Below are positions 16,683 through 52,996 of a stretch of 64,000 nucleotides of DNA, piece after piece (within the stretch, counting starts at the first letter, position 1; each line of letters starts with the position of its first letter). Location of the stretch: the IMG/VR virus record IMGVR_UViG_3300037400_003880. One strand, written 5' to 3'. Both the position numbers and the translations under genes were made by a program. The stretch comes from a virus. Lineage: Duplodnaviria > Heunggongvirae > Uroviricota > Caudoviricetes. The notes under the pieces were generated by a model. The model saw only the letters and a list, made by a program, of their open reading frames with translations, was not told the origin of the DNA and did no database searches.

Positions 16683-16727
16683 CTTTTAATAAAAAATATA
16701 TTATAATAATTAAAAGAGGTGATAGTA

Positions 16728-17819
16728 ATGTATCGTATGGGTTCAGATGGCGGTGAATTTTATTCTTTCATCGCAACAAATTCATTACCAATTGGATATT
16801 CCGATGGCGCACCATTTATGTCTGCCAATAGACCAGTACCTTCTTTTAATTCAAAAGAAAAAATTTTAGGACAAACTTATGGATATATGGCTAATAGGGG
16901 AGAGCTCCGCTCTTCCCAAGCCTTTGATTCTCAAGAAAAAATGTACTCTCTTGGGAATAACTGGGTTTGTCTTGCGGTCGCAAATTATCAAAAGACATAT
17001 CACTCAACGGATATTCATGCGGATTATGTAAAAACTCCGACAGATAGGGATATTGCGGCATTTGTTGAGAATGCTCACAAGCGTGGGGTTAAAGTTTGTC
17101 TAAAGCCGATGGTAAATACAGAAGATGGAGTTTGGAGAGCACATATCGGTTTTCCAGATTTACATTCTGGAGATATGGATTATTATTGGAAATTGTGGTT
17201 TATTAGCTATAAAAATTTCCTACTCCATTATGCAGAACTCGCGCAAGAACTTAATTGTGAAATGTTCTGTATCGGCTGTGAGATGATTGGTACAGAGCAT
17301 CGTAAGTATGATTGGCTATATCTTATTGATGAAGTTCGCAGAGTTTATAGTGGTAAAATTGTATATAATACAAATCATGACAGAGAAGATGCACAGGATT
17401 GGTTTGACACTCTTGATTATATTGCAACTTCAGCATATTATCCAGTTGGAATAAATGGACTTAATGAAGATGCAATGATTCGAGAATGGAATAAAGTGAA
17501 ATGGCGATTAAATGCAATTGCTGATAGCAGGAAAAAGCAATATATTTTTATGGAAATTGGCTGCCGTTCTGCAAAAAATTGCGCAACAGAGCCATGGGAC
17601 TTTAATACACATATGGAGCCAAGCTTAGAGGAACAAGAGCTTTTTTATAAGACTTGTTTAAAGACTTTTATTGATGACCCACATTTTGCTGGTGTATTCT
17701 GGTGGGACTGGCCCACATATCTCTACCCAATTGATGCCGCGGCGCAAGATACAAGTTATTGTATTTATGGTAAACCAGCAGAACAGATAGTTAGAAACTA
17801 TTATAATAAGGTGAAATAA
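16728..17819 (+). CDS. TIM-barrel glycoside hydrolase-like protein (GH5/GH113-like; possible depolymerase)
   Basis: AAAGAGGTGA ribosome-binding site, then ATG at 16728. The ORF has no TAG. Motifs VKVCLKPMV, EMFCIGCEMIG and FWWDWP look like a (beta/alpha)8 hydrolase. Confidence 0.55.
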   Translation: MYRMGSDGGEFYSFIATNSLPIGYSDGAPFMSANRPVPSFNSKEKILGQTYGYMANRGELRSSQAFDSQEKMYSLGNNWVCLAVANYQKTYHSTDIHADYVKTPTDRDIAAFVENAHKRGVKVCLKPMVNTEDGVWRAHIGFPDLHSGDMDYYWKLWFISYKNFLLHYAELAQELNCEMFCIGCEMIGTEHRKYDWLYLIDEVRRVYSGKIVYNTNHDREDAQDWFDTLDYIATSAYYPVGINGLNEDAMIREWNKVKWRLNAIADSRKKQYIFMEIGCRSAKNCATEPWDFNTHMEPSLEEQELFYKTCLKTFIDDPHFAGVFWWDWPTYLYPIDAAAQDTSYCIYGKPAEQIVRNYYNKVK

Positions 17820-21389: not shown

Positions 21390-21944
21390 ATGGCTGTATA
21401 CATTGCGGCAGATACTAATTTTTGTTAGAGCGATGAAAGAGACGCTGAATTAATGCTAAATTGGAATGCAAAGGTCAATGAGGACGACTTAGTTATTTTA
21501 ATGGGTGACGTTGTCTATCATGGTGCTAGTTCTTGGGAGCGAGTAGAAGAAATCTTTGACCAGCTAATTGGAAAAAAGAAATTAATTGGTATTAGCCAAG
21601 AAGAAGAAGGCGCAGAGGAATGGAGAAAAATTACCCATCATAAATGTTTTCGTGTTGATGCGGCAGTATTAGGAGAGATTAAAGGAGAGCAAACGAAAGT
21701 TTTTATTTATTCCACTCTTCACCCAGAAATTCGAGATAAGCAAATGAAAAAGAAAAATCTCTACGGCGCGGCACCGAGGTCTCTTACCGGGAATAAAGAA
21801 ATCTTTGAAGATAATATTATTAGTATTTCAATTGATGATTGGGGACTTGAACCTATTGAGTATTTCAGGATCCCTCAAATGATTGATGATATGCTATTAT
21901 TTGAATCAATGGAAACTAAGGAGGAAAAAATTGATGAAAATTAA
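21390..21944 (+). CDS. metallophosphoesterase-like protein (184 aa, 1 in-frame TAG at codon 13)
   Basis: Strong AAAGGAGG ribosome-binding site, then ATG at 21390. The frame continues through TAG into track ORF 21453-21944. VYIAADTNF...LMGDVVYHG resembles the phosphoesterase motifs I and II. Confidence 0.55.
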
Positions 21945-22170
21945 ACTTGAAACTGGTTGGTAGCTTTTTGTTTTTATTCTAGTTATGCTTGGATTACTTT
22001 TTGCAATAATTGTCTTTCAACTTTGGCTGTGGAAAATTATTTTTGTTGCGGCATTTGGTTTACCACAGCTAACTTTCTGGCAAATGGTTGCGCTAAATAT
22101 TTTTTGCGATATATTATGCTGTGGAAATAATAGATGGCTTTCAATTAAATTTAAAGGGGAGGAGTTATAA
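21934..22170 (+). CDS. small membrane protein (78 aa, 1 TAG)
   Basis: GGAGG ribosome-binding site. Two hydrophobic helices. Overlaps the ThyX ATG. Confidence 0.45.
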
Positions 22171-22850
22171 TGGGAAGAGTAACAGTTTTATCTGATACGA
22201 CAAAAACCCCATTTACTATGATGGGGAATATGGCAGGACTGTGCTGGGGTTCTCCAGTTGATAATTAGAAAAAAAATTTCAAACGAGGCTTTGAGTGTAT
22301 AATGTCAGGTCATGGTAGAGTTGAAGAATACCCACAGATTTACTTACAACTTGATGGATATTCAGCTCGTGTCATTAGAGAGTTCTATACGCATATTGGT
22401 GGAGCGCCAACCAGACTTCAAGAGTCAACTCGTTATGTCGATTGCAGCTCATTTGGCTTTGTGATTCCGCCAAGCATTTTGGAAAATGGTAAAGCCAATT
22501 ATATCTATCAGGAGACCATGCGGAACATCTCTGAGGCGATTAAAGCGCTTGAAGATTTGGGAATAAAGCGAGAAGATAGTGCGATGTTGCTGCCTCTTGG
22601 AATGGAAACTAAAGTTATTGTAAGAACAAATCTTCGTAATTTAATTGATATGAGTCATCAGCGTCTTTGCACTCGCGCATATTGGGAGTTCCGCCAACTT
22701 ATGAAGGATATTATCAATGCACTTGCAAAATATTCTGAAGAGTGGGAAATTCTTATTGATTATGACCTATTTGTACCAAAATGTCAAGTGTATGGGTATT
22801 GTCCAGAGAAAAACAGTTGTGGTAGAAGACCAAAGAAGGAGGTTGCATAA
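22170..22850 (+). CDS. thyX: flavin-dependent thymidylate synthase ThyX (226 aa, 1 in-frame TAG)
   Basis: GGGGAGGAG ribosome-binding site, then ATG at 22170 in frame with track ORF 22302-22850 across one TAG. A ThyX-like N-terminus (MMGNMAGLCWGS), YTHIGGAPTRLQESTRY, and the RHR-type region SHQRLCTRA. Confidence 0.75.
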
Positions 22851-23872
22851 TGGGCGTTGCTGATATGAATATACCAAAGAATTAGACAATTTTTGATGCC
22901 ATGATTAAATGTGAGGTGATTCTTGACAAACATAATAAAATCATGGTAAGCATTAGTGGCGGCTCTGATTCTGATGTTATGTTAGATATGATTGAAAGAT
23001 GTAAGGCGCCGCACAATGAGATTGATTACGTATTCTTCGATACGGGAATTGAGTTTTAGGCAACCAAAGACCATATTAAATTTTTGGAAGAGAAGTATAA
23101 TATTACAATTAACAGAACCAAGCCCGTTAAATCTATTCCTAAATCTTGTAAAGACCACGGGCAACCATTCATGAACAAGACTGTTAGTGAAAATATCTCA
23201 AGGCTTCAGCGGCATAATTTCTAGTGGGAAGATGCACCATATGAAGAACTTATTAAGAAGTATCCAAAGTGTTAGTCTGCATTAAGTTGGTGGACGAATA
23301 ATTGGGGCGAGAAAAGTTCTTTCAATATTGAGCGTAGGAAGTGGCTTAAGGAATTTATGGTTGCAAATCCGCCGCAGTTCCTTATTTCTCAAAAGTGCTG
23401 TCAATATGCAAAGAAAGAGCTTGCAAAACAGTGGAAGAAGGAACACGCTTGTGACCTTAGTTGTATTGGAATGAGACAAGCTGAAGGCGGGCAAAGAGCT
23501 ATGAGATATAAGAGCTGCTTTACGCAGGGCGGCGCGGGCACTATTGATGAGTTCAGACCTATCTTTTGGCTTAGTGATAAAGATAAGGAAGAGTATATTG
23601 AATTTTTTAAGGTACAATTAAGTGATTGCTATACTAAGTATGGTCTTAGAAGAACTGGCTGCTCTGGCTGTCCTTTTGCTTTAGGCTGGAGAGCAGAACT
23701 TGCTGCGGTTGAAACTTTTGAGCCAAAGCTTGCAAATGGTATTAAGCATATTTTTGCAGACAGTTATGCTTACTTAGATAAGTATGAAAAGTTCTGTGAG
23801 GAAATGGACAAGAAGTATGATGGAATTTCTTATGCTGAATTTAGAAGAAGGCAGAAGGAGGAAGGCAAGTAA
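22850..23872 (+). CDS. PAPS-reductase-family PP-loop ATP pyrophosphatase (340 aa, 4 TAG)
   Basis: PP-loop SGGSDS in the N-terminal part, which is reached only by reading through TAG codons. Continues into track ORF 23357-23872. Confidence 0.7.
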
Positions 23873-24390
23873 TGTTGAAGAATGCGAAGATTTATGAGGA
23901 AGAGATTAAAGTTGCAATGAGAGAGTATTGGTATGATTTGCGCCATCAGTATGTTTGTGGATGGTGCGGCTGCCAAGATTTTAACGTTGGAGAGAGTAAT
24001 TATGAAGCCCATACCTTTGCAAGTATTGACCCCGAAACTGGTAAGCTTCTTGGTGCTATTGGTTATAACGTAGACTGGGCTTCGAAGTCTGCATCAGGTT
24101 TCTTTGCAGAGACTCTCGTTGATGGCGGCTCCGTCATTTTTGCCCAAGATATTCTTCAAGTGATTGATGATATTTTTAGGAAGTATCATTTCAATAGAAT
24201 TGATTGGAATTGTTGGAGTGATAATCCTACTATTAGAAGTTATCGTAAACTTTGTAAGAGATTCGGCGGACGAGAGGTTGGAACCTTGAAAAAGAAAGGT
24301 CGTCTAATTGACGGTTTTCTCCATGATAGTACAATTTTTGAACTTCTGTCAGAAGACTATTTATCTCATGTGGAGGAGAATAATGAATAA
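23872..24390 (+). CDS. hypothetical protein
   Basis: Track ORF. Start overlaps the upstream stop. Confidence 0.5.
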   Translation: MLKNAKIYEEEIKVAMREYWYDLRHQYVCGWCGCQDFNVGESNYEAHTFASIDPETGKLLGAIGYNVDWASKSASGFFAETLVDGGSVIFAQDILQVIDDIFRKYHFNRIDWNCWSDNPTIRSYRKLCKRFGGREVGTLKKKGRLIDGFLHDSTIFELLSEDYLSHVEENNE

Positions 24391-24826
24391 CTTTGAAAGG
24401 ATTACTGAACTGAAGAAGCAGTTAAAAGAAATAAGCGAAGAAGGAATGAGGAAAACTCAACTGCAAATTAATATACAGCAGGAGCTTAATCGTTTACAGA
24501 GAGATAGACTAACGCCACTGGTTGGGAAATTTTTTGCTTCTAAAGCCAGATATTTTATGGTAACTGATGTACCGCAAGAGATTCTTACTATGTATGGAAC
24601 TCATTTGAATAGCCATCAAATCCCTATCTATTCTCTTTGCGTTGACGAATCTGACGGAGATTATGGCGAACTGGGAGAAGAAACACTTCATTCTAATTGC
24701 ATCGAACAGGATGATATTTTTGCGGCTTTTATCGCGGAAGGGAACACTGAAATTACAAAAGAAGAGTTTCTTAATAAAGTAATGAGTGTCGTTAACGACG
24801 TTGCTGATAAGGGGAAGAAAGAATGA
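24383..24826 (+). CDS. hypothetical coiled-coil/acidic protein
   Basis: GGAGGAG ribosome-binding site, then ATG at 24383 (MNNFERITELKK). Confidence 0.5.
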   Translation: MNNFERITELKKQLKEISEEGMRKTQLQINIQQELNRLQRDRLTPLVGKFFASKARYFMVTDVPQEILTMYGTHLNSHQIPIYSLCVDESDGDYGELGEETLHSNCIEQDDIFAAFIAEGNTEITKEEFLNKVMSVVNDVADKGKKE

Positions 24827-26400
24827 GTGCGATTGTTGTAAATTTGTTTGGCGCGGCAGGTTGTGGAAAATGCTTCACAAAAGGAACTAAAGTTCTTATG
24901 TGGAATGGTGAAGTAAAAAATATTGAAGATATTTATGTTGGAGATTGGGTCATGGGAGATGACTCTAAACCAAGAGAGGTATTGGAATTACACAGAGGTA
25001 GAGCGCCGCTTTATTTATTAAAAAGAAGTTTTTCTAAAGATATTATTGTAAGTGCTAACCATATTCTATCTTTAATGAATTATCACAGGGATGGATCTTG
25101 GTCTTATGAAGATATTTCTATAGAAGATTTTCTTAATAAAAGTCTTAATTATCAGCGCAATTCAAGATTGTATAAGACATCTGTATCTTTTTCTACAGAA
25201 GCTGAAAGGAATAATCTTAAAATTGATCCGTATTACTTAGGCTATTGGCTTGGAGACGGCTTATCAGATACGATAAATCGTTTTTGTACCGCGGATGAAG
25301 AGATTATTGACTATTGTCGAGAATATGGAAGGAGAATTGGGTTGTCTCTTAAACAACATTCTTACAACGACGGGAAGTGTCAAACTTATTGTCTATCGGA
25401 GGGAAATATTGGCAATCACTCTTTCCATCCATTAAAAGGAAATATTTACAATCTTCGAAATAATAAGCATATACCAACAGAATATAAAACAACAACTTTG
25501 GAAAATAGACTTGCGCTTATTGCTGGTTTAATTGATTCTGATGGTTCTCTTAATAATACATCTTATGACTGGATAAATAAAAATAAGACTTTAGCTTTTG
25601 ATTTTTATCAGCTTGTTAATAGCTGTGGTTTAAGAGCTACAATAAGAGAATGCACAAAAAGTTGTGGAGATTTTTCTGGAACTTATTATCGAGTTAACAT
25701 AACTGGAGATTTAAAAATGATTCCAGTAAAAATAAAACGAAAAATTTGTTTGAATACTATACAGGATCCATCGAAAGTTTTAAGAGAAAGCTTTAAGGTA
25801 ATTCCCATTGGAGAAGGGGAGTATTATGGTTTTACTACTGATGGAAATCATCGTTTTGTATTAGATGACTGTACAGTAGTCCATAATTCAACTGCCGCGG
25901 CATATGTATTCTCTCAATTAAAAATGAGAGGAGTTAATTGTGAACTGGTTACTGAGTATGCGAAAGATTGTACTTGGGAAAATAGAGAGATGGTATTAAA
26001 TTGTCAAGAATATATTTTTGGAAAACAGTCTTATAGGTTAAAGCGATGCGCCGATAAGGTGGATGTAATTATTACTGACAGCCCTCTTCCTATAGGATTA
26101 TTTTACAATACTGATCCCGCATTGGATGATAATTTTAAGAATGTTGTTATGAATATTTATAATAAGTATTGTAACGTGAATTATCTTTTGACAAGAGTTG
26201 TGCCATATGACCCAGTTGGTAGGAATCAGACTCAAGAAGAAGCAGATATGATTGGGGATAAGATTCAAGATTTTCTTGATGATAATGATATTCCTTATGT
26301 TCATGGGATAGGGGATATTGATTTTTATAATCTTATCGTTAATCAAATTGTTTCAATATTAAAGCTTATAGAGGAAGAGGAAGAGGAGGCGAAAGAATGA
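24823..26400 (+). CDS. P-loop nucleotide kinase (dNMP-kinase-like) interrupted by an intein
   Basis: The Walker A motif GAAGCGK-[intein]-STAAAYV is split exactly at the K/S junction. The exteins together give about 186 aa with VIITDSP. Confidence 0.75.
   Translation: MSAIVVNLFGAAGCGKCFTKGTKVLMWNGEVKNIEDIYVGDWVMGDDSKPREVLELHRGRAPLYLLKRSFSKDIIVSANHILSLMNYHRDGSWSYEDISIEDFLNKSLNYQRNSRLYKTSVSFSTEAERNNLKIDPYYLGYWLGDGLSDTINRFCTADEEIIDYCREYGRRIGLSLKQHSYNDGKCQTYCLSEGNIGNHSFHPLKGNIYNLRNNKHIPTEYKTTTLENRLALIAGLIDSDGSLNNTSYDWINKNKTLAFDFYQLVNSCGLRATIRECTKSCGDFSGTYYRVNITGDLKMIPVKIKRKICLNTIQDPSKVLRESFKVIPIGEGEYYGFTTDGNHRFVLDDCTVVHNSTAAAYVFSQLKMRGVNCELVTEYAKDCTWENREMVLNCQEYIFGKQSYRLKRCADKVDVIITDSPLPIGLFYNTDPALDDNFKNVVMNIYNKYCNVNYLLTRVVPYDPVGRNQTQEEADMIGDKIQDFLDDNDIPYVHGIGDIDFYNLIVNQIVSILKLIEEEEEEAKE
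24871..25887 (+). mobile_element. intein (339 aa) with a LAGLIDADG homing endonuclease domain
   Basis: Begins with Cys1 (CFTKGTKVLMWNGE, Hint block A) and ends VVHN, followed by Ser+1. Two LAGLIDADG motifs are present (YLGYWLGDGL and LIAGLIDSDGSL). Confidence 0.8.
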
Positions 26401-27491
26401 GTTTTCCTGTAATGATTATCGTAGCAGTTATTATAGGCGGTTTAGCAGGAGCATTAGTTTATTTTATTACTAACAGACAGTCTGCAAAGAAGTTACCAAG
26501 AATTAACTTTAATGAGGCACAAGAAAAAGCAGTCCAAGGACTACAAAAAAAGAAGGACGCTTATGAAAAAGAGATGACTTAGGAAGCTCGATAGGAAGTC
26601 GCAGACTTTCTTAATAAGCTGAATGCAGAAAAGTGTAAGTTGTCAGATGAACTTACGGAATCTATCTGTGACCTTGAGGAGAAAAAACATTAGAATGAAA
26701 TGGCTTTAAAGCAGGCTGAACACGACTATTAGGAAAATGTTAAAGCCATGTAGAAGATTTGGCAAGAGTAGGAGAGCGCGGCGTATGAACGTAGGCGTGC
26801 AGATAATGAAAAAGTAATAGAATAGTTTGAAGCAGAAAAGAATGCCGAACTTGAGAAATTAAAGGTTAGTTATGGGCATAAAGAAAAGGGGCTGACTGAA
26901 GATTTTTTAGCATATAGCGCCGAGGTATCTATGAAAAGGGAGGCATTGACTAAGGAAATTGAAGCCTATGAAGCTCAACAGCGTGCCATAATAGAACGCT
27001 TTAAGAAAGATGAAGAGACAAGACAGTAGGTGGATTTTTATAGAATGATTTTATCAGAAAATGAAATTTTTGATATTAAAAAAATAAGAAGTATTGCTGA
27101 AGATTTACATAATCCTATTATTTTATATAAATTAATCTGGGAGAATTTTTATAAAAATAAATTTTCTGAATTAGTGGGAAGAGTTGCCGGAGATAAAAAA
27201 TGTGGAATTTATAAGATTACGAATCTTAAAAATTAGAAAAGTTATATTGGGCAGACTAGGTAGTCTTTTAAAGAGAGGTGGCGCACTCATGTAAAAAGAG
27301 GACTTAGAGCAGAGCCAACAACAAATAATAAATTATATTCATCTATGTGGGAAGACGGTGTGGAAAATTTTACTTTTGAAATAATTTGTTAGTGTTCTCC
27401 AGAGGAACTGAATGAACAAGAAAAACGCTATATTGCTTTTTATAATGCTTTGGAGTGGGGATATAATTCGACAGGGGGAAATACAAAATGA
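26397..27491 (+). CDS. membrane-anchored coiled-coil protein with C-terminal GIY-YIG nuclease domain (364 aa, about 12 in-frame TAG); could be two genes
   Basis: An N-terminal transmembrane helix is followed by a Q/E-rich coiled coil read through TAGs. The C-terminus GIYKITNLKNQKSYIGQT...RxxxH...E is a GIY-YIG motif. A GTG at 27030 or ATG at 27045 could start a separate GIY-YIG ORF. Confidence 0.5.
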
Positions 27492-27493
27492 TA

Positions 27494-28538
27494 ATGAGCA
27501 TTTATAATTAGAAAGAGCCTGTATCGGGTATCTATAAAATTGATAAAACCCGACTTGCAAACGATTGGTGTCTTGTACTATTGCCCATTAAAAGGCACGT
27601 ATTTTCGCAATTGCTCCAATACGAGCGAACGAAACACAAAATATTGAAAATGTTCAATCGTATGATTTGGGTGCAAATTATCGCAGAAACGTGTAACTTT
27701 TACCAACCAACTGCAAGTCGGGATTTAAATTGATTTTCCCAATGGAAAAAGCTATATTGGACAAAGCAACGATATTATTCGTAGAATAAGAGAGCATAAT
27801 TGTTCAAATAATAATTATCCAATTTCTCGTGCAATAAAAAAATATGGTAAAATTATTACATTTGATTTATTGGAACAAATATAGCCTGATCAAAAAGATT
27901 TAATGAATGAGCGAGAAAAATTTTATATAGAATATTATCATACAACAATTAAAGAAAAAGGTTATAATATCTCTTTGGGCGGCGGAGGCTATAAGAGAGA
28001 GATTCCTGATAAAATAATAGAGTTACAAAAAGATATTATAAACTCAAGTTATACATTTAAAGAATTAAGTGAGAGATATGGAATAGATATTTCTACAATA
28101 TCAAAGATAAATAATGGAAAAACATATTTTAATGATGCTCTTACTTATCCTCTTAGAAGTGAAAAGAAATATCACTCTCAAGTTTTGAGTGAAAATGAAA
28201 TAAATAAAGTTCGTTTTGAACTAAAAAATAATTATAAAAAAAGTATGTCAGAAATTAGTGAAGAATATCATACTAATATATCAATTATATAGAGAATTAA
28301 TAAGGGTATATCTCCTTATAAAAATTCAGATTATGTTTATCCAATAAGAAGTAAAAATAAAAATTTTTGTAAATTTACTTTAACTGAAGTATTAGAAATT
28401 ATATCTTTATTAAAAAATACAAATTTAACTTAGATAGAAATAGCTAAAAAGTTTAATTGCAACAGGAAGATAATAGGACAGATAAACTCTGGACAAAAAT
28501 ATTATATTGAAGAAGTAGAGTATCCAATTAGAAAATGA
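27494..28538 (+). pseudogene. GIY-YIG homing endonuclease (I-TevI/Seg-like) interrupted by a 190 bp insertion after the GIY motif
   Basis: Exon-like part 1 (27494-27547) encodes ..SGIYKIDK. Part 2 (from 27735, a different frame) encodes FPNGKSYIGQSNDIIRRIREH..KYG..GYNISLGGGG plus a C-terminal HTH repeat region. The frames are reconciled only if about 187-190 nt are removed. Confidence 0.6.
27545..27734 (+). mobile_element. MITE-like insertion (about 190 bp) with about 15 bp terminal inverted repeats and an 8 bp direct repeat
   Basis: Terminal inverted repeats AAAACCCGACTTGCA and TGCAAGTCGGGATTT. Flanking direct repeat AAATTGAT at 27537-44 and 27727-34. The element sits inside the GIY-YIG coding sequence. 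Confidence 0.55.
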
Positions 28539-28636
28539 CTTATATTAGTAGATATAGGATACAATATGAAAACTGGGTGATATAATGGAAATCATTGTAG
28601 CTTTATTAATTGGTGCAACGATCATGTTAAAGATTG

Positions 28637-28668
28637 TCAACTACTTATTAAGTAGTTGACTTTTTTCT
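28637..28668 (+). terminator. terminator hairpin (CAACTACTTATTAAGTAGTTG) overlapping the -35 TTGACT
   Basis: 10 bp stem followed by a T-rich tract. Confidence 0.55.
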
Positions 28669-28684
28669 TATTTTTTGATATAAT
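28656..28684 (+). promoter_or_regulatory. conserved promoter
   Basis: TTGACTTTTTT..TTGATATAAT. Confidence 0.55.
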
Positions 28685-28840
28685 ATAAGAGTAATAAGTA
28701 ATAATACCATTTTAATTATCTCATAAAGGAGTGAAAATAATGGGAGTCATCATATTATTCATTATATTATATTATGGAAGTAGGTTGCTTTGGAATATAA
28801 TAGCATCTATATTCTTTAAGTAATAAGAAAGGAGAATAAA

Positions 28841-29113
28841 ATGGGAACAAAGAAAGTTATTATTTGGGGAAAAGAAGAGGCAGGTTTTGACAATGATGAA
28901 TTAGGAGAAGCTGGAGATTGGGCTGAACATCATATGATTAACTGCCCACAGATGAAACATTCAGGAATCGCTTACAATATTTTGACTAAAAAAAGTGAGG
29001 GCGGCGGTTATGTTGGCATTACTAAAATTGCTGAATGCCGCGCCTGTCATGTAAAGTATATCCTTTCTCAATATTTCATTGATGCTGAAACTGGTAAGTA
29101 TGTAAAAGATTAA
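28841..29113 (+). CDS. hypothetical Cys/His protein
   Basis: AGGAGAA ribosome-binding site. Track ORF. Confidence 0.5.
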   Translation: MGTKKVIIWGKEEAGFDNDELGEAGDWAEHHMINCPQMKHSGIAYNILTKKSEGGGYVGITKIAECRACHVKYILSQYFIDAETGKYVKD

Positions 29114-29126
29114 GGAGGAATTATAA

Positions 29127-29384
29127 ATGAGAAACAGAATTTATTTAACTGGTGAAAAGGATTGTATCGCTTTTTGCAATAGAATTAACGAATGCCGCGG
29201 GCGCGTTGAACTGGTCGATGGGACTGGGCGTTATCGTGTAAATGCCAAGTCTATTCTTGGATGCCTGCTTGCGTCTGGAGAGTGGGGCGGTGAGATTTGG
29301 CTCGAATCTGAAACTGATATTTATTCATTAGTTGACGAATGGATTGCTGATACCGCAGATGATAATGTAAGCGTTCATAATTGA
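29127..29384 (+). CDS. HPr-like phosphocarrier-fold protein (tentative)
   Basis: RVNAKSILGCLLASGEWGGEIWLESETD resembles the HPr core (KSIMGVMSLG...I). Confidence 0.4.
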   Translation: MRNRIYLTGEKDCIAFCNRINECRGRVELVDGTGRYRVNAKSILGCLLASGEWGGEIWLESETDIYSLVDEWIADTADDNVSVHN

Positions 29385-29395
29385 GGTGAATTTTA

Positions 29396-30187
29396 ATGGT
29401 TTATATGGGCGGGAAATCAAAGACTGCTGATAGCATTTGCCCGATAATTAACAAATATATTAAGGAAAATAATATAGAAAATTTTTACGATATTTTTTGT
29501 GGTGGGGCTAATATTTCTACGCATATAGTATGTGATAATATTTATGCTACAGATTTATCTCCCACTTTAATAGCATTGCTTAATGCTGCATAGATTGACT
29601 TTGATGGTTTACTTGGAAATTTACCCTCTACAAGAGAATAGTGGGACAGGTGTTATGAAGAATATAAAGAACTTCAAGCTGTAAATTTCAATTTTATAGA
29701 AAGAGTTCCTCGGATTCCTTTGTATGAAATTGGTTCAATCGAGTGGCTCGCAAGTTTTTCTGGTCGAGGCTTTCCCGGTGGTTATGGAGTGAAAAGCACT
29801 GGAAGGAATCTTTTTGAGGAAAGAAAAGCTAACTTAAAAAAATAGAGCAATACTGGTTCTTTTAAAAGAATTAATTTTAATGTTAGTGACTACCGTGATT
29901 TAAAAATTAAAAAGCCAAATAGTTTAATTTATGCAGATGCTCCTTATAAGGGAACAAAAAAGTATGGCATAAATAACAAAAATAATGCTTTTGATTATGA
30001 AGAATATTATAACTGGTTAAGGGAAATGGCAAAAACTTTTCCAATTTTTATTAGTGAAGAGACTATGCCGGATGACTTTATTGAAGTATGGCACAAACCA
30101 GTGAAAAGAAGTTTAGACGCTAATAATGATACTCGTAAAATTGCAACGGAAAAGTTGTTTTTTATTGATAGGAGGAATAATGGCTAA
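29396..30187 (+). CDS. dam: DNA adenine methyltransferase (Dam/D12 class; 264 aa, 3 TAG)
   Basis: Motif I FYDIFCGGANIS. Motif IV LIYADAPY is reached after read-through of TAG. Confidence 0.7.
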
Positions 30188-35410: not shown

Positions 35411-37120
35411 ATGAGAAAATTAATAAGCGTGCTTACAGCAGCATCCCTAATGGTTTTCTCCATCATACCATTATCAACAGGCGCGAAGACAAACAAAGAA
35501 CTTCTTAATTATGAAGATAATGGAGAATTACTTGGCGTAGCTTCAGCTTTTTCTGTGTTTGTTGAGGAAGATTTTGGGGCAAATGGCTGTGACTGTGAAG
35601 GAAGAATTTTTGCAGGTCATAGTGCAAATGTTGGAGAAGCAACTTCTTACGCTGTAGCAGAAGATTCTGGTGCAAGTGTAATAATTTCAGACGGAATCCT
35701 TTTTAATTTTGATAAGGGAAATCGGATTTTCGTCTATGGTTCAAATGGAGAAACGCAGCTTACTGGAGACAATGTTTATCAAGCAGACTTAATTGCAGCT
35801 CACGAAGAGTTTGAAAAATTGAGAGAGAAAAGCAGAAAACTTTCTCAAAAAAATAATGGAGAAGTGAAAATAAATCCTTACTGGAACGCACAGATTGATT
35901 TTGTTGGTACTGATCCAGATTTTAATATATTCAATTTAGACAGCAATATGATTGACTCTTGCAATTATTTCTTTAATTATGAAGTCCCAGAAGGGTCTTA
36001 TGTTATTATAAATATTGCAGGTCAAGATTTAACCACATATACACAGCTTTATGGAATGCAATATGCAGGTCATAGAGCTACAAATAATAAAGATGAAGTT
36101 TCTAAGTATATTCTCTTTAATTTTTATGAAGCAGAGAACTTAGCTATTGCAGGAACAGGAACTCTCTATGGAACAGTTTTTGCTCCTTTTGCAAATGCTG
36201 GGGACGATATGACTGAAGGTGCGCACAACGCCGGTGGAGTAATTGCGAAGAGTTATATCGGAGGAATTGAGTTCGGTAATTGCACCTATGATGGAGGTGA
36301 ACCGGATGAAGTACAAATTCCAACTGAAACTACAGAAGCAACTACTACTACCAGTATTACGACTACCAGTACTGCAACTACCAGTACTGAATTATCTACA
36401 ACTACGACTAAAGGAACTACAACTACCGAAAGGGAAACTGAGACAAGCTCTACCACTTCTACTCGCAGAGCGACAACTACTCTACCTACTACAACTACGT
36501 CTACAACAAATCTTACAACTAATACAACAACCTCAACAAGTACAACAACAAGCACAACAAGCACAACAACAAGTACAACAACCGGAACAACTACTTCAAT
36601 CACGAGTATTACAGGATCTACCGAAAGACCTACAAGTAGCTCAACAACAATTACAACTACTAAGCAAACTACAACAAGTACTACATCCACAACTCCAAGA
36701 CCAATAGAGACAACTACTACCGATAGAGAGACTACAACTTCAGCAACGACAACAACTGAAACAACTACAACTACTACAGGAGAGGTTAAAGGAACTACAG
36801 AAGTAAGTACCAATCCAACAACTATGGACTGGGCAACTGATATTCAAACAACAAGTGAGGCGACTACAATTGAAACACAGACAAGCGAGTCTGAAACAAC
36901 AACTAATACCACAGTTGAGTCAACTGGAACCAGCACAACGGTTTGCAGTAGTGGAAGTAGAGCTACTGAGGAGTCTACAACCAGTACAAGCGAAACTACT
37001 ATCGGAAACGTGGAGTCAGCGAAAACTGGAGACTCAGTGGACGCTGGAAAAGTTGCCGGAGTTTGCGGCCTTGCAATGATTGTAGGATTACTGGCTATAT
37101 TTGGAAAGAAAGAGGAATAA
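35411..37120 (+). CDS. secreted cell-surface protein with Thr-rich mucin-like linker and C-terminal membrane anchor
   Basis: Signal peptide, then a globular N-terminal domain, about 200 aa of T/S/E repeats, and a C-terminal ..SAKTGDS..hydrophobic stretch..KKEE (sortase-anchor-like). Confidence 0.65.
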   Translation: MRKLISVLTAASLMVFSIIPLSTGAKTNKELLNYEDNGELLGVASAFSVFVEEDFGANGCDCEGRIFAGHSANVGEATSYAVAEDSGASVIISDGILFNFDKGNRIFVYGSNGETQLTGDNVYQADLIAAHEEFEKLREKSRKLSQKNNGEVKINPYWNAQIDFVGTDPDFNIFNLDSNMIDSCNYFFNYEVPEGSYVIINIAGQDLTTYTQLYGMQYAGHRATNNKDEVSKYILFNFYEAENLAIAGTGTLYGTVFAPFANAGDDMTEGAHNAGGVIAKSYIGGIEFGNCTYDGGEPDEVQIPTETTEATTTTSITTTSTATTSTELSTTTTKGTTTTERETETSSTTSTRRATTTLPTTTTSTTNLTTNTTTSTSTTTSTTSTTTSTTTGTTTSITSITGSTERPTSSSTTITTTKQTTTSTTSTTPRPIETTTTDRETTTSATTTTETTTTTTGEVKGTTEVSTNPTTMDWATDIQTTSEATTIETQTSESETTTNTTVESTGTSTTVCSSGSRATEESTTSTSETTIGNVESAKTGDSVDAGKVAGVCGLAMIVGLLAIFGKKEE

Positions 37121-42600: not shown

Positions 42601-43503
42601 ATGAATAAGGCTTCTTTTTATATGGCAGTTGGTCTGCCGGGGTCTGGCAAGTCTTACCTGTTTGAATCTGTAATCAAGAAGTTGTCTCCTGACTGTGTAT
42701 ACGTATCTTCTGATGCAATTCGGGAGGAGGTATTCGGTGACGTAAACGATCAGGAGCATAATGAGCAGGTGTTTGAGCTGATGAAGCGCCGCACCCTTGA
42801 TTCTCTGAAGGCAGGAGTGTCGGTTTATTATGACGCAACCAATGTGTCCGCAAAGCATCGTATCGGTTTCCTTAAGGGACTTTCCCATATCAAGGACATC
42901 GCACGGGTATGTGTGTTGAACACTCCGCCCGTTGAGGTTGTAAAGTTCCGTAACGCCCATCGTGAGCGCAAGGTTCCGGAATACGTTATTGACAGAATGC
43001 TGAAGTCTTTCAATGTGCCTGACTATTCTGAGGGATGGGATGTAATTCTTCGTTATGGTTCTGATGAAGACCATAATGCAATTGAGGAAATTACTTGCTC
43101 TTCTGCAAAGCTGTCTCATGATAATCCTCATCACTCTGCAACTGTTGGAGTTCATATGTTTAATGCAGCAAACTATGCTGAAAAGGAATTGAAGGCAAAT
43201 TGCGAAGTCATCGAAGCAGCCTGCTATCATGATATTGGTAAGCCTATTTGTAAAGTATTTCAGGATGCAAAGGGCGAGCCGTCTGATGTAGCTCATTACT
43301 ACAACCATGAGAATGTCGGAGCATACCTATATCTTTCTCATGCAAAGAATGACGGGGTATCCCTGTATATTGCTAACCTGATTGCTCACCATATGGATTT
43401 TTTCAAGGGTGAAAAGTATGTTGAGAAGATTCATAATCGTTTTGGAGAGGGATTCTTTCGGGATCTCCAGCTCCTTCATAAGGCTGATGTAAATGCACAC
43501 TAA
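42601..43503 (+). CDS. polynucleotide-kinase-like P-loop kinase fused to an HD phosphohydrolase domain (RNA/tRNA repair candidate)
   Basis: Walker A GLPGSGKS and DxT-like YYDATN. C-terminal HD motifs H..HDIGK..H. Confidence 0.7.
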   Translation: MNKASFYMAVGLPGSGKSYLFESVIKKLSPDCVYVSSDAIREEVFGDVNDQEHNEQVFELMKRRTLDSLKAGVSVYYDATNVSAKHRIGFLKGLSHIKDIARVCVLNTPPVEVVKFRNAHRERKVPEYVIDRMLKSFNVPDYSEGWDVILRYGSDEDHNAIEEITCSSAKLSHDNPHHSATVGVHMFNAANYAEKELKANCEVIEAACYHDIGKPICKVFQDAKGEPSDVAHYYNHENVGAYLYLSHAKNDGVSLYIANLIAHHMDFFKGEKYVEKIHNRFGEGFFRDLQLLHKADVNAH

Positions 43504-48115: not shown

Positions 48116-48190
48116 TGGGGTATCGCCAAGTGGTAAGGCACAGGACTTTGACTCCTGCATCCGTGGGTTCAAATCCCTCTACCCCAACCA
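48116..48190 (+). tRNA. tRNA-Gln (anticodon TTG), CCA encoded
   Basis: U1:A72 acceptor TGGGGTA/TACCCCA. D-arm GCCAAGTGGTAAGGC. Anticodon loop CTTTGAC. T-loop TTCAAAT. Closely resembles E. coli tRNA-Gln. Confidence 0.75.
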
Positions 48191-48193
48191 TAT

Positions 48194-48271
48194 GCCGGTG
48201 AAGCTTAAGTGGTATAAGCACTCCCCTTATAAGAGAGAGATAGATGGGTTCGAGTCCCTCGACCGGCACCA
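48194..48271 (+). tRNA. tRNA, identity uncertain (anticodon loop CTTATAA reads TAT; Ile2-like?), non-canonical T-stem
   Basis: Acceptor GCCGGTG/GACCGGC. D-arm GCTT..AAGC. T-loop TTCGAGT. CCA encoded. The anticodon stem has one mismatch. Confidence 0.45.
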
Positions 48272-48280
48272 ATAAATAAT

Positions 48281-48309
48281 TTGACTTTTTTATGGAAATA
48301 TGGTATAAT
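48281..48309 (+). promoter_or_regulatory. conserved promoter
   Basis: TTGACTTTTTT..ATGGTATAAT. Confidence 0.55.
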
Positions 48310-48330
48310 ATTTATAGAGAGGTGAGAGAA

Positions 48331-48510
48331 ATGACTGTAAAAGATTTAAGCGTAAAGATGGAAGCCTTAATTGAAAATGGTTAGGCTGACATTGAAGTCA
48401 TGGTATATGATATGCATGAGGGGTGGAAGCCTTATGTATATGAGGATACTTCTTTCCATGGCGGAAAGATTTATCTTGGACTTCCTGAAGTGAAAGTAAC
48501 AAGTGAATAA
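48331..48510 (+). CDS. small hypothetical protein (59 aa, 1 in-frame TAG)
   Basis: GAGGTGAGAG ribosome-binding site, then ATG at 48331. A TAG at codon 18 is read through to TAA 48508-10. Confidence 0.4.
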
Positions 48511-48511
48511 T

Positions 48512-48540
48512 TTGACTTTCTAAGAAAAATATGCTATAAT
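48512..48540 (+). promoter_or_regulatory. conserved promoter
   Basis: TTGACTTTCTA..ATGCTATAAT. Confidence 0.55.
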
Positions 48541-48546
48541 ATTTAT

Positions 48547-48614
48547 AGACAGGTCAGCAATTCAAATTTTAAGGACTATGCTTTTAACATAAAATTCTTA
48601 AACAATCTGTCTTG
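48547..48614 (+). ncRNA. Y RNA-like stem-closed element (short, stem-loop only)
   Basis: 5' AGACAGGTCAGCAA pairs with 3' CTGTCTTG. Family motif present. Confidence 0.4.
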
Positions 48615-48654
48615 AAATGGTTCGGCATCACTCCATTCAAAAGCGGTGTCAGAT

Positions 48655-48728
48655 GCGCCTATCGTCTAAAGGTAGGACACTACACTTTTAATGTAGGTAT
48701 TCGGGTTCGAGTCCCGGTGGGCGCACCA
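48655..48728 (+). tRNA. tRNA-Lys (TTT), CCA encoded
   Basis: Acceptor GCGCCTA/TGGGCGC. Anticodon stem CTACA/TGTAG with loop CTTTTAA. T-loop TTCGAGT. Confidence 0.75.
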
Positions 48729-48732
48729 GCAT

Positions 48733-48835
48733 ACGGCAGTTCAGCAATCCACTTTTTATTGCAGCCAAAAATTTTTGCAAGCGTATGGTTCGACTCCTGC
48801 GTTAATTCGGAGACGGTCTCCAAAGGTCTGTCGTG
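48733..48835 (+). ncRNA. Y RNA-like stem-closed element with T-loop-like GGTTCGACTCC and internal GGAGACGGTCTCC hairpin
   Basis: 5' ACGGCAGTTCAGCAATCC ... 3' CTGTCGTG. Family motif TCAGCAA present. Confidence 0.4.
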
Positions 48836-48841
48836 TATTAT

Positions 48842-48932
48842 GTCGAGATGGGTGAGTTGGCTTAAACCAGCGGTTTGCTAAACCGCCGACCGGCACAAAG
48901 CCGGTCCGAGGGTTCGAATCCCTCTCTCGACG
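48842..48932 (+). tRNA. tRNA-Ser (GCT), class II
   Basis: Acceptor GTCGAGA/TCTCGAC. Anticodon stem GCGGT/ACCGC with loop TTGCTAA. Long variable arm GACCGGCACAAAGCCGGTC. T-loop TTCGAAT. Confidence 0.7.
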
Positions 48933-48963
48933 CTTTCAAATTATTGAGAAAGAGGTGAGTCCA

Positions 48964-49194
48964 TTGGGCATAAAAGATTCCAACTGCTGGAAATATTTTC
49001 TGAGTAAAGCTCCATATGATGTTCTTGTAACAATTATGAAGAATACAGGAATTTGTCCAGTTGCCGCTTTGATGGGAGAATTTGACATTAACATATGTCT
49101 TCTTCATCATCCTCATAGAATATTTAAGACTCTTGAGGAAGAAGCTGTTTGTTATGAGTGCCTTCAAAAATGGCTAAACGAAAAAACTCAATGA
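48964..49194 (+). CDS. small Cys-rich protein inside the tRNA array (start uncertain: GTG 48955 or TTG 48964)
   Basis: Track ORF 48955-49194. AGAGGTGA ribosome-binding site. CxxC...CYEC. Confidence 0.35.
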   Translation: MGIKDSNCWKYFLSKAPYDVLVTIMKNTGICPVAALMGEFDINICLLHHPHRIFKTLEEEAVCYECLQKWLNEKTQ

Positions 49195-49195
49195 T

Positions 49196-49224
49196 TTGAC
49201 TTTTGAAGAAAAAAGTGATATAAT
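49196..49224 (+). promoter_or_regulatory. conserved promoter driving the suppressor tRNA pair
   Basis: TTGACTTTTGA..AGTGATATAAT. Confidence 0.55.
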
Positions 49225-49292
49225 TATTATAGTAAAGGCACAAACAGCAAGAATATCGTCCAACCTTAGAACGATACGTGTCTTGGCGAGAT

Positions 49293-49368
49293 TTCGGTTT
49301 CGCCAAGTGGGTAAGGCAGCGGGCTCTAACCCCGCCATTCGGGGGTTCAAATCCCTCAACCGAAACCA
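49293..49368 (+). tRNA. amber suppressor tRNA (anticodon CTA) on a tRNA-Gln-like scaffold, CCA encoded
   Basis: TTCGGTT TC GCCAAGTGGGTAAGGC A GCGGG CTCTAAC CCCGC CATTC GGGGGTTCAAATCCCTC AACCGAA A CCA. U1:A72. The D-arm and T-loop are nearly identical to the tRNA-Gln at 48116. Confidence 0.8.
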
Positions 49369-49439
49369 TTCTCCTTCGCCAAGCGGTAAGGCAGCGGGCT
49401 CTAACCCCGTCAGCCAAGGTTCGAATCCTTGAGGAGAAG
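49369..49439 (+). tRNA. second amber suppressor tRNA (anticodon CTA), directly abutting the first; no CCA
   Basis: TTCTCCT TC GCCAAGCGGTAAGGC A GCGGG CTCTAAC CCCGT .. CAAGGTTCGAATCCTTG AGGAGAA G. The anticodon stem and loop are the same as copy 1. Confidence 0.75.
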
Positions 49440-49443
49440 TGTA

Positions 49444-49530
49444 AAGACGGTTCAGCAAAACACAAATGGTTAAAGAAAAATTCTGCAAAAATTTTTTGAA
49501 ACGGTTCAAATCCGTAAATTTCCCGTCTTG
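49444..49530 (+). ncRNA. Y RNA-like element with closing stem AAGACGG/CCGTCTT and internal T-arm-like ACGGTTCAAATCCGT
   Basis: Family 5' motif GACGGTTCAGCAAAAC. 7 bp terminal stem. Confidence 0.45.
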
Positions 49531-49535
49531 TTAAT

Positions 49536-49564
49536 TTGACTTTTTTCTTAGAGTATGATATAAT
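49536..49564 (+). promoter_or_regulatory. conserved promoter
   Basis: TTGACTTTTTT..ATGATATAAT. Confidence 0.55.
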
Positions 49565-49613
49565 AAATATGTACTTAAAAGTACGGAGCGAAATTCTCCT
49601 TAAACTACAAAAT

Positions 49614-49687
49614 GCGGCTATGGTGTAGTGGTAACATTTCTGCCTTCCAAGCAGACGTGGCGGGTTCGAGTCCCGTTAGCCGCTCCA
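49614..49687 (+). tRNA. tRNA-Gly (TCC), CCA encoded
   Basis: Acceptor GCGGCTA/TAGCCGC. Anticodon stem TCTGC/GCAGA with loop CTTCCAA. T-loop TTCGAGT. Confidence 0.75.
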
Positions 49688-49730
49688 GCTGTTGGTAAAC
49701 AGGTTGGCTCAATTGCCCGAAGCTTCCAAA

Positions 49731-49971
49731 AGACAGGTCAGCAATCCTTATAGAAATGTAATATTTAGAATAGGATTGAAAACTAACGGTATTAGTTTTG
49801 CTCGGGACGACTACTATGAAAGGAATGAGGTAAAACTCTCAACCGAGCTTATAGCGGCTGCCGGCTTTCGTGGCAGGAACCTTCGCCAGTCGTTACTACA
49901 CAGCGACATTAAAGAAGTGTGAGTATTGATGCAGCCTCCCTTTACGGGATTTAGATTTAGTACCTGTCTTG
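49731..49971 (+). ncRNA. Y RNA-like element, long form (about 241 nt)
   Basis: 5' AGACAGGTCAGCAATCC ... 3' TACCTGTCTTG. Highly structured interior. Confidence 0.4.
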
Positions 49972-50460
49972 AAAATTGAATGGTCGGCATTCGCTTGTGC
50001 CTTCCCCATAAGTTAAATTCAAGCCTCTACTGTGCTTATATCCCGTCTATTATGTTCGTCCGGAAGTGCGGCACATTAAATAACGCGGCGAAAAGAACAT
50101 TAGAACTCTCGTATATAGACTCAGGATAAGTGGAGCGAGACTAAATAAGTACCCGTTTGGCACGAGTTGTGCTAAATCCGAATCGTTCCTTATACTGCCA
50201 TATGAGGAGCGTCTGTGGCAGCAGTAATGAGACAGAAAGCTCTCAGAGTTGTACAGCTCAAAGCTTTCTCGCAATCCGCCGGTGTGAATGGGCGGTACCT
50301 TGTGAGTTAGTAGATGGACATAACTCTCCGTCTGGTTTGGCGTGAACGGACTGCTCAAAGGGTTCAACTCCCTTTCAATAGGATGTGCCTATTGCTACGG
50401 TTTAGGAGTTGGCACCAAGTACAAGCCTCCACGCGGCGGTGCTGGATTTGAACTAATTGT
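49972..50460 (+). ncRNA. unclassified structured non-coding region (about 490 nt) with T-loop-like AAGGGTTCAACTCCCTT and several GTCTG/CAGAC long-range complements
   Basis: No credible ORF; the track ORFs here overlap on both strands and are low-complexity. Lies between a Y-like element and a conserved promoter. No tmRNA, RNase P or group I core motifs were recognised. Confidence 0.3.
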
Positions 50461-50472
50461 ACAAAAGATTAT

Positions 50473-50501
50473 TTGACTTTTTATAAAAATTATGATATAA
50501 T
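50473..50501 (+). promoter_or_regulatory. conserved promoter
   Basis: TTGACTTTTTA..ATGATATAAT. Confidence 0.55.
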
Positions 50502-50522
50502 ATTTATAGAAAGTAAAGAGAA

Positions 50523-50598
50523 CGCGGGTTAGAGCAGTTGGTAGCTCGTCAGGTTCATTACCTGAAGGTCAGGGGTTCGAGTCCCTTACCCGCAACCA
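50523..50598 (+). tRNA. tRNA-Met/fMet-like (CAT), C1·A72 mismatch, CCA encoded
   Basis: Acceptor CGCGGGT/ACCCGCA. D-arm GAGC..GCTC. Anticodon stem TCAGG/CCTGA with loop TTCATTA. Confidence 0.6.
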
Positions 50599-50601
50599 AA
50601 T

Positions 50602-50677
50602 CGCCCCATCGTCTAAATGGTAAGGACGCGTCCCTTTCAAGGAGGTAATGCGAGTTCGATTCTCGCTGGGGTGACCA
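50602..50677 (+). tRNA. tRNA-Glu (TTC), CCA encoded
   Basis: Glu-type D-arm GTCTAAATGGTAAGGAC. Anticodon loop CTTTCAA. T-arm GCGAGTTCGATTCTCGC. Confidence 0.65.
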
Positions 50678-50685
50678 GCACGTTA

Positions 50686-50762
50686 CGACAAATCAGCAAA
50701 ACACTTCTTTCTTCAGAAATTAGAGAGATAAAGTCGTGCATTATCTTTAATAGTTTGTCGTG
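50686..50762 (+). ncRNA. Y RNA-like short element
   Basis: 5' CGACAAATCAGCAAAACAC ... 3' TTTGTCGTG. Confidence 0.4.
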
Positions 50763-50769
50763 AAAAATG

Positions 50770-50838
50770 GCGCGGTAGTGTAAAGGTAGCATAGTAGAGT
50801 CATTATCTACTGATTCAAGTTCGAGTCTTGACTGCGCA
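50770..50838 (+). tRNA. short tRNA with CAT anticodon (Met or Ile-lysidine type), reduced D-arm
   Basis: Acceptor GCGCGGT/ACTGCGC. Anticodon stem GTAGA/TCTAC with loop GTCATTA. T-arm CAAGTTCGAGTCTTG. Confidence 0.45.
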
Positions 50839-50842
50839 ATAA

Positions 50843-50966
50843 AAGATGTGTCAGCAAAACACTTAGTTATGGCATTTTAAGCCTCAGAATGTTGGTTCGA
50901 GTCCAACCCTCTCTTTGGAGAGGTAGCTTAATTGGCAGAGCGGAGAAAAACGAAAAACACATCTTG
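50843..50966 (+). ncRNA. Y RNA-like element with permuted tRNA-like module
   Basis: 9 bp closing stem AAGATGTGT/ACACATCTT. Interior: T-arm GTTGGTTCGAGTCCAAC, acceptor 3' strand CCTCTCT, TT, acceptor 5' strand GGAGAGG, TA, D-arm GCTTAATTGGCAGAGC. Confidence 0.5.
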
Positions 50967-51190
50967 TTTTAATGCCCGAGTACCCCAATCGGCAGAGGGA
51001 GCGGACTTTGATGTATTCTATCACAAAAGTGATACTACTGAAAAGTAGAGAGTGCCCCAAGAGAAATCTTGGAAGTAGAAGATGGCTAAAACGGCGAAGG
51101 CGAATACAGAACGCCGTGCAAGGATTTTAGGCAGACGGAAAGTTTTAGATGGATTTTTGCGTGATACCACTTATAAGTGAGGTGATAGAA

Positions 51191-51697: not shown

Positions 51698-51713
51698 ATC
51701 GAAAGATATGGTT

Positions 51714-52994: not shown

Positions 52995-52996
52995 TT

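Follow-up and report, generated by a model that had tools for sequence, protein, structure and literature searches.

This report concerns a single gene in a 64,000-nucleotide (nt) stretch of DNA from an uncultured tailed phage (Caudoviricetes; IMG/VR record IMGVR_UViG_3300037400_003880), hereafter called the window, and the element of 339 amino acids (aa) that interrupts the Walker A motif of its product. A sequence-only reading, made without database searches, had taken the window for phage DNA, which holds, and had described the gene as that of a phage kinase carrying an intein with a LAGLIDADG homing endonuclease. The gene is a 525-codon open reading frame (ORF) that runs without interruption and without an in-frame TAG codon (Table 1). 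At either end the gene overlaps its neighbor in an ATGA sequence, by its ATG with the upstream stop codon and by its TGA with the downstream start codon, and it is therefore part of a tightly packed, co-oriented block. The window from 21823 to 29400 is 100% identical to a Logan contig (SRR12668996_108612), on which the identical precursor protein is called. A megablast search of positions 24000-27000 against GenBank phages returned no match, thus there is no close cultured relative among them.

Table 1. Features of the intein-bearing gene and of the gene that follows it (window coordinates).
Feature	Coordinates	Strand	Evidence
Precursor gene, P-loop kinase-like host protein split by the intein	24823..26400	+	Single ORF, 525 codons and TGA stop
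N-extein, aa 1-16 (MSAIVVNLFGAAGCGK), beta-strand 1 and Walker A through the invariant Lys	24823..24870	+	Residue-for-residue alignment with intein-less alleles P0001-P0005; nt 24838-24870 identical to intein-less locus L001
Intein, 339 aa, Cys1 to His338-Asn339	24871..25887	+	Pfam Hom_end_hint and LAGLIDADG_3; PI-SceI match by sequence and AlphaFold2 model; same stretch missing from L001
N-terminal Hint (splicing) part: block A (Cys1, CFTKGTKVLM) and block B (SANH, His64 at nt 25060-25062)	24871..25185	+	27/51 residues identical to PI-SceI 1-51; Cys1 and His64 invariant; model all-beta over aa 7-102
LAGLIDADG homing-endonuclease domain, intein aa ~117-300	25219..25770	+	Aligned to PI-SceI 206-~400; alpha/beta repeats in model; Foldseek match to I-DmoI
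LAGLIDADG motif 1, YYLGYWLGDG, intein aa 121-130, catalytic Asp129	25231..25260	+	Aligns to PI-SceI LGLWIGDG
LAGLIDADG motif 2, LIAGLIDSDG, intein aa 216-225, catalytic Asp224	25516..25545	+	Aligns to PI-SceI LAGLIDSDG
C-terminal Hint part, blocks F and G (EYYGFTTDGNHRFVLDDCTVVHN)	25783..25887	+	Aligned to PI-SceI 430-454, DYYGIT..DHQFLLANQVVVHN
C-extein, aa 356-525, first residue Ser+1, the Walker A Ser of GK-S-T	25888..26397	+	94% nt identity to L001 from exactly this position; AAA_28 match; confident model of the spliced protein (see text)
Downstream gene, 364 aa, C-terminal GIY-YIG homing-endonuclease domain, not part of the intein	26397..27491	+	Logan gene call with PF01541; PHROG homing-endonuclease families 2e-20

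Anatomy of the intein

The element occupies residues 17-355 of the precursor, between Lys16 and Ser356 of the Walker A motif. Its ends are those proposed by the sequence-only reading: Cys1 is precursor Cys17 (TGC, nt 24871-24873), the C-terminal His-Asn pair is residues 354-355 (CAT AAT, nt 25882-25887), and the C-extein opens with S356-TAAAYVFSQLK, where Ser356 is encoded by TCA (nt 25888-25890). Block A and the two LAGLIDADG motifs, which had also been named from the sequence, are present. Comparison with profile hidden Markov models (HMMs) agrees with the assignment to inteins that carry a LAGLIDADG endonuclease. The Pfam family Hom_end_hint (PF05203) matches with E=2.7e-21 and 77-79 bits, above its gathering cutoff of 32.1, and LAGLIDADG_3 matches with 31-33 bits, above its cutoff of 22.5. 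The NCBIfam scan of the precursor gave a sole match, to an intein-containing radical SAM model, which is below threshold and uninformative.

We aligned the intein with 40 relatives (41 sequences, 35-79% identity) and examined the conservation of the residues expected to take part in catalysis. Cys1, His64, Asp129, Lys199, Asp224, His338 and Asn339 are invariant in this alignment. So are Y121, G124, W126, L127, G128, D129 and G130 of the first LAGLIDADG motif, A218, G219, D222, D224 and G225 of the second, and G320 in the region of blocks F and G. Ser+1 is present but, unlike the other catalytic residues, is not invariant among the relatives. Block B is the tetrapeptide S-A-N-H (intein aa 61-64); its assignment rests on the family alignment and on its position, because phmmer left this segment unaligned to PI-SceI.

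We consider it highly probable that the element belongs to the canonical class 1 inteins, that it is of the PI-SceI (Hom_end_hint) type and houses a LAGLIDADG homing endonuclease with two motifs, and that it splices and homes in the standard manner. A search of all six-frame ORFs of the window with an HMM of the intein family, TAG being read as glutamine, found no second intein of the same family. The guanine-plus-cytosine content is 29-35% in the intein and 33-42% in its flanks, a contrast that is too weak to argue for a foreign origin from base composition.

Similarity to PI-SceI

The best sequence match of the intein in the PDB (E 2.5e-20) is PI-SceI, the intein of Saccharomyces cerevisiae VMA1 (PDB 1VDE, 1DFA and 1LWS; PF05203/PF05204). 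In both proteins the Hint domain is split by a LAGLIDADG endonuclease with two motifs, and both begin with Cys1. The first 51 residues of the phage intein align with PI-SceI without a gap, and 27 of them are identical. Residues 117-339 align through both LAGLIDADG blocks, the lysine of the K-x-I-P motif and blocks F and G; the phage Lys199 falls opposite PI-SceI K301, the lysine of KNIPSF. The two inteins have in common block C (LG.W.GDGLSD), block E (AGLIDSDG), block F (YYG.T...H.F.L) and block G (VVHN). Blocks F and G, on which the identification as an intein had been made to depend, are thus present, and they read EYYGFTTDGNHRFVLDDCTVVHN in the phage and DYYGITLSDDSDHQFLLANQVVVHN in PI-SceI.

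We also built an AlphaFold2 model of the intein on the 41-sequence alignment, which has a mean predicted local distance difference test (pLDDT) of 92.7 and a predicted TM score (pTM) of 0.91. Its best matches in the PDB are eleven PI-SceI chains (TMq 0.75-0.81, E down to 4e-27). These are followed by archaeal VMA inteins, PI-PfuI, Prp8 mini-inteins, which match the Hint part only, and I-DmoI, which matches the endonuclease part only. The twice-repeated alpha-beta-beta-alpha-beta-beta-alpha fold is present in the model, as seen from its matches to the endonuclease domain of PI-SceI and to I-DmoI. The PDB holds too few endonuclease-bearing inteins for the rank of PI-SceI as top match to carry phylogenetic weight, and we found nothing specific in the literature on a phage origin of the VMA1 intein.

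The two inteins also differ in several respects. The phage intein is 115 residues shorter (339 versus 454 aa), and its overall identity to PI-SceI in the structural alignment is ~21%. Its residues 52-116 are unaligned by sequence, which suggests that the extra DNA-recognition region of the Hint domain is much reduced. The +1 residue is Ser in the phage and Cys in VMA1. Finally, the host proteins and the insertion sites are different: the VMA1 intein is inserted downstream of the P-loop in subunit A of the V-ATPase, and the phage intein is inserted in the Walker A motif of a kinase.

Intein-less alleles and occupied orthologues

Alleles without the intein are available for comparison. When 5.8 billion proteins were searched with the spliced protein as query, 990 relatives came up, and the best 120 of these are 174-260 aa long, too short to contain an intein. 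The two closest alleles (P0001 and P0002) are 95-96% identical to the spliced protein and have an unbroken GAAGCGKSTAAAY. At the DNA level, the window and an intein-less locus (L001) are collinear (91-94% identity), and the stretch absent from L001 is exactly nt 24872-25884, with 4 nt of ambiguity at the junction; the empty site of L001 reads GGTTGTGGAAAA^TCAACCGCCGCGGC. The 33 nt upstream of the insertion point are identical in the window and in L001. The collinear loci also differ at two places further downstream. Positions 27544-27727 of the window (~190 nt) have no counterpart in L001 (L001 7692-7699), and the segment 29368-30205, with a D12-class DNA methyltransferase gene, is replaced in L001 (9334-10262) by a non-homologous one with an unannotated gene of 251 aa.

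A query with the intein alone retrieved some 30 clusters of proteins (P0121-P0150), orthologous to the kinase-like gene and with the intein at the same position, GxGxGK^C...HN^S[TS]. The length of the intein in these orthologues is 337-347 aa and no mini-intein derivatives are seen. In diverged orthologues the intein is 77-79% identical and the exteins are 58-66% identical; in further ones the values are ~70% and 48%, respectively. An intein that is more conserved than its host gene in the orthologues, together with the closest exteins (95-96%) being free of it, is the signature that would be expected of horizontal spread by homing with sporadic occupancy.

The host protein after removal of the intein

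Removal of the intein in silico restores the motif GAAGCGKST and yields a protein of 186 aa, which matches the AAA_28 family better than the precursor does. The score for AAA_28 (PF13521, cutoff 27 bits) is 18.3 for the precursor, below the cutoff, versus 38.5 for the spliced protein, over its whole length. The spliced protein also matches PHROG 2107, annotated as 'thymidylate kinase', from residue 1 (7e-13). Its model (pLDDT 93.9) has a P-loop kinase fold with five parallel strands. Among the neighbors of this model in the PDB, as found by Foldseek, are the deoxyadenosine kinase of M. mycoides (2JAS), several thymidylate kinases and the ribosylnicotinamide-kinase domain of NadR (TMq 0.57-0.69). 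The closest viral models (BFVD) are unannotated 'AAA domain' or 'NK domain' phage proteins with TMq up to 0.91.

The P-loop kinase fold is thus common to the host protein, NadR/AAA_28 proteins, deoxynucleoside kinases (dNK) and thymidylate kinases (TMPK), but the sequence identity to solved kinases is at most 20%. The family has its own invariant motifs (E..AKD..W, Q.Y..G.Q, TDSP and GRNQT) which, as far as can be told, are not those of TMPK or dNK. A Pfam scan of the spliced extein gave no match to Thymidylate_kin (TMPK) or dNK (PF01712) even at E<=1, and the match of the family profile to deoxyguanosine/deoxyadenosine kinases (dGK/dAK) is marginal (E 0.012). The sequence-only reading had seen in the host a P-loop protein resembling deoxynucleoside monophosphate (dNMP) kinases. 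The kinase-like P-loop fold is borne out by Foldseek and AAA_28, while the more specific assignment is not. The evidence supports a nucleoside/nucleotide-kinase-like P-loop protein, for which dNMP kinase is one of several possibilities.

The genomic context allows more than one role for this protein. The gene is located downstream of genes for ThyX and a PAPS-reductase-like protein and near other nucleotide-metabolism genes, and the window also encodes a nicotinate phosphoribosyltransferase (62688-63905), an enzyme of nicotinamide adenine dinucleotide (NAD) salvage. Because of ThyX nearby and the phosphoribosyltransferase in the window, roles in deoxynucleotide metabolism and in NAD salvage are both conceivable. 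The host gene family is found in 99 GenBank phage records, including Lak megaphages of Prevotella and phages of Clostridium and Caulobacter.

Proposed splicing and homing, and other interpretations

The anatomy, the fold, the conservation of the catalytic residues, the exact restoration of the host protein, the presence/absence polymorphism and the signature of horizontal transfer are all demonstrated in silico, and we infer splicing and DNA cleavage as follows. The precursor would be made as one chain of 525 aa, presumably inactive because its P-loop is split by the intein. Cys1 (aa 17) would attack the carbonyl of Lys16 in an N-S acyl shift to form a thioester. Ser+1 (aa 356), the Mg-coordinating serine of the Walker A motif, would then take over the N-extein by trans-esterification. 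Cyclization of Asn339, assisted by His338, would release the intein, and an O-N shift would create the Lys16-Ser356 peptide bond and restore the P-loop (GAAGCGKSTAAAY) in a functional 186-aa protein of kinase fold. The freed intein of 339 aa would act as a site-specific endonuclease that, upon co-infection, cuts intein-less alleles at or near ...GGTTGTGGAAAA^TCAACCGCCGCG..., and recombinational repair from the intein-bearing copy would spread the element (homing).

We examined selection on the gene by comparison with one of the occupied orthologues (L003). The ratio of nonsynonymous to synonymous substitution rates (dN/dS) is 0.08 for the extein and 0.06 for the Hint part, both rough values since dS is saturated for these two parts, and 0.21 for the LAGLIDADG part. 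By these ratios, purifying selection clearly acts on the Hint and the LAGLIDADG part alike, an argument for retained splicing and a weaker one for retained endonuclease activity.

Together with the saturation of dS, several points weigh against the proposed splicing and homing. The Thr position of block B is occupied by Ser (SANH), a conservative variant. The 26 nt downstream of the insertion point contain one synonymous change, ACC in L001 versus ACT in the window, 6 nt from that point, and this difference at the target may have an effect on cleavage; activity of the window copy on the sister allele is assumed. The DNA flanking the target differs considerably between the lineage of the window and L003, therefore the specificity of the endonuclease must have drifted or be tolerant.

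The main competing interpretation, which we regard as unlikely, is an intein that is competent in splicing and carries a dead endonuclease, late in the homing cycle, no longer spreading and kept only because the P-loop would be lost in any imprecise deletion. Inactive endonucleases are common among inteins, and homing elements typically pass through invasion, fixation and decay. The closest known copy of the intein is 79% identical, so that no very recent transfer of this exact copy is seen, and the dN/dS of the LAGLIDADG part exceeds that of the Hint part, although a value of 0.21 is still one of purifying selection. However, the LAGLIDADG helices are preserved in full, as are both catalytic Asp residues and the conserved Lys, without variation in the 41 sequences. 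The length of the domain has also been kept in the roughly 30 orthologues, with no mini-inteins among them, and empty sites persist in the 95-96% identical sister phages, the condition that maintains an active endonuclease.

Another interpretation is that the intein, by splicing conditionally, has come to serve the kinase as a post-translational switch, where a disulfide between Cys(-3) and Cys1 traps the precursor until conditions become reducing. If true, the kinase would be activated according to the redox state, or the stage, of the infected cell. The N-terminal splice junction is indeed spanned by a CxxC motif, residues C14-G-K-C17 (window 24862-24873, codons 14-17), arranged as in a known redox trap: a Cys-3/Cys1 disulfide controls an engineered Ssp DnaE intein and the native MoaA intein of Pyrococcus abyssi (PMC3922620). 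Insertion into the P-loop would additionally make activity strictly dependent on splicing. On the other hand, Cys-3 is also present in the intein-less sister alleles P0001-P0003, and the position is Ser, Ala or Thr in all other intein-bearing orthologues, a Cys being unusual in the family; therefore Cys-3 has not co-evolved with the intein. Since the bacterial cytoplasm is reducing and the intein occurs only sporadically, a sign that it is dispensable, we consider such a switch improbable.

It is extremely improbable that the element is not an intein but a simple inactivation of the kinase gene, be it by an in-frame homing-endonuclease gene of the free-standing kind, by a Hint domain of the bacterial intein-like (BIL) or another type, or by chimeric assembly or pseudogenization. 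Nothing supports this beyond the generic caveat of a metagenomic assembly, and several observations speak against it: the same 525-aa protein is found on the independent Logan contig, the orthologue clusters come from many samples and have the same architecture, the +1 nucleophile accompanies a complete set of four splicing blocks, excision at the boundaries gives back the host motif exactly, and BIL domains, unlike this element, have no nested endonuclease. The pseudogene or chimera, the BIL domain and the in-frame free-standing gene are effectively excluded by the blocks, the orthologues, the restored motif and the PI-SceI fold. An intein that splices and whose endonuclease is active in homing is the interpretation that we retain.

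Relationship to other P-loop inteins

Insertion between the P-loop Lys and the following Thr/Ser is the 'classic' insertion of P-loop inteins (Kelley et al. 2016, PMC5050341), and ATPases that are not orthologous to one another are known to carry inteins clustered in their P-loops (Novikova et al. 2016, PMC4760082). The intein described here has the insertion point of the classic P-loop inteins, such as mycobacteriophage TerL1-a and DnaB-b (PMC5050341, PMC4760082), namely between the Walker A Lys and the Thr/Ser that serves as the +1 nucleophile. It belongs to the same sequence clade, with relatives 33-42% identical in the P-loops of DnaB, terminase, thymidine kinase, PhoH, dNK and AAA_33 proteins. 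Among 99 wider relatives whose intein boundaries are complete, the insertion point follows the Walker A Lys in 64 (GK^S/T) and lies two residues earlier in 25 (G^xGKS/T), and the sites of the other 10 are variant or mis-delimited. At least 89 of the 99 are thus located in P-loops of unrelated nucleoside triphosphatases (NTPases), and the Pfam domains of their hosts include DnaB, terminase, thymidine kinase, PhoH, dNK, AAA_33, DEAD/ResIII and others.

Members of the intein family are present in 699 GenBank phage records, all with identity below 60%, and mostly in helicase or terminase genes of mycobacteriophages and of Salmonella, Klebsiella and Vibrio phages. Klebsiella phage JD001, many Salmonella phages and mycobacteriophages carry relatives that are at most 39% identical, in helicase or terminase genes. 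What distinguishes the present intein from the classic P-loop inteins is its host, a small stand-alone AAA_28 kinase-like protein. A query spanning the junctions found no intein-bearing allele of the host gene in 50,697 deposited phage records. The word 'kinase' is absent from the main text of both surveys of P-loop inteins (PMC5050341, PMC4760082), and we found nothing specific in the literature on an intein in a phage kinase. Judged by the deposited phage genomes, the host protein is apparently new for an intein.

Because a known kind of element is found in a known position, this is a new example and not a new phenomenon, and the general understanding of inteins is unchanged by it. A stand-alone nucleotide-kinase-like protein of the AAA_28 family joins the P-loop NTPases colonized by the classic GK^S/T intein clade. 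The empty sites of the sister phages (95-96% identity in protein and 91-94% in flanking DNA), together with the roughly 30 occupied clusters, constitute a natural experiment on homing between co-infecting phages. Additionally, the compact PI-SceI-like endonuclease and Cys1/Ser+1 intein of 339 aa is a possible source for protein engineering.

Gene neighborhood

The gene directly downstream of the intein-bearing gene (Table 1) can be read only with TAG as a sense codon, having 11 in-frame TAG in its 364 codons. Its product is predicted to have an N-terminal hydrophobic segment and a long charged helical region ahead of the C-terminal GIY-YIG domain. A second homing-endonuclease-like gene lies at 27729-28538 and matches the DNA-binding C-terminal part of a PHROG family that the first one also matches. 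Both of these genes also adjoin the intein-less allele in L001.

Other auxiliary genes of the window encode an RNA ligase (59979-60914), an AAA_33 kinase fused to an HD phosphohydrolase domain (42601-43503) and a DUF2828/DUF7788 protein (54990-56459). In L003, the intein-bearing kinase gene is instead close to the AAA_33-HD and DUF2828 genes; the gene order has therefore been rearranged between the lineages.

Apparent reading of TAG as glutamine

The phage appears to read TAG as glutamine, and this reading is a more unusual feature of the window than the intein; the AAA_28 host gene of the intein thus sits in an uncultured phage with an apparently altered code. Two tandem tRNA genes with the anticodon CUA (49293-49368 and 49369-49439) are part of an array of 19 tRNA genes (48116-54750), and their D- and T-arms resemble those of the tRNA-Gln(UUG) of the window. 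When TAG is treated as a sense codon, the ORF content of the + strand (ORFs of at least 100 aa) increases from 13,154 to 18,701 aa (+42%) and the longest ORF from 569 to 1035 aa. In the comparison of in-frame TAG positions between the window and the 91%-identical L001, 25 TAGs are common to both and six of the seven differences are exchanges of TAG and CAG. Within the tRNA array, ARAGORN also reports a tRNA at 53143-53215 with a two-base 'anticodon' (ca), which may have an unusual anticodon loop or be a pseudogene.

The use of TAG is strongly gene-specific. The intein-bearing gene has no in-frame TAG in its 525 codons, and all 12 of its glutamines are encoded by CAA or CAG. Many other genes of the window are either free of TAG or rich in it, which suggests two expression classes. 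The TAG-free genes include one for a full-length protein of glycoside hydrolase family 113 (16719-17819, E 2e-104) and one for a protein with a putative ice-binding-like adhesin domain (35411-37120), and the products of these two genes may have host-surface or depolymerase functions.

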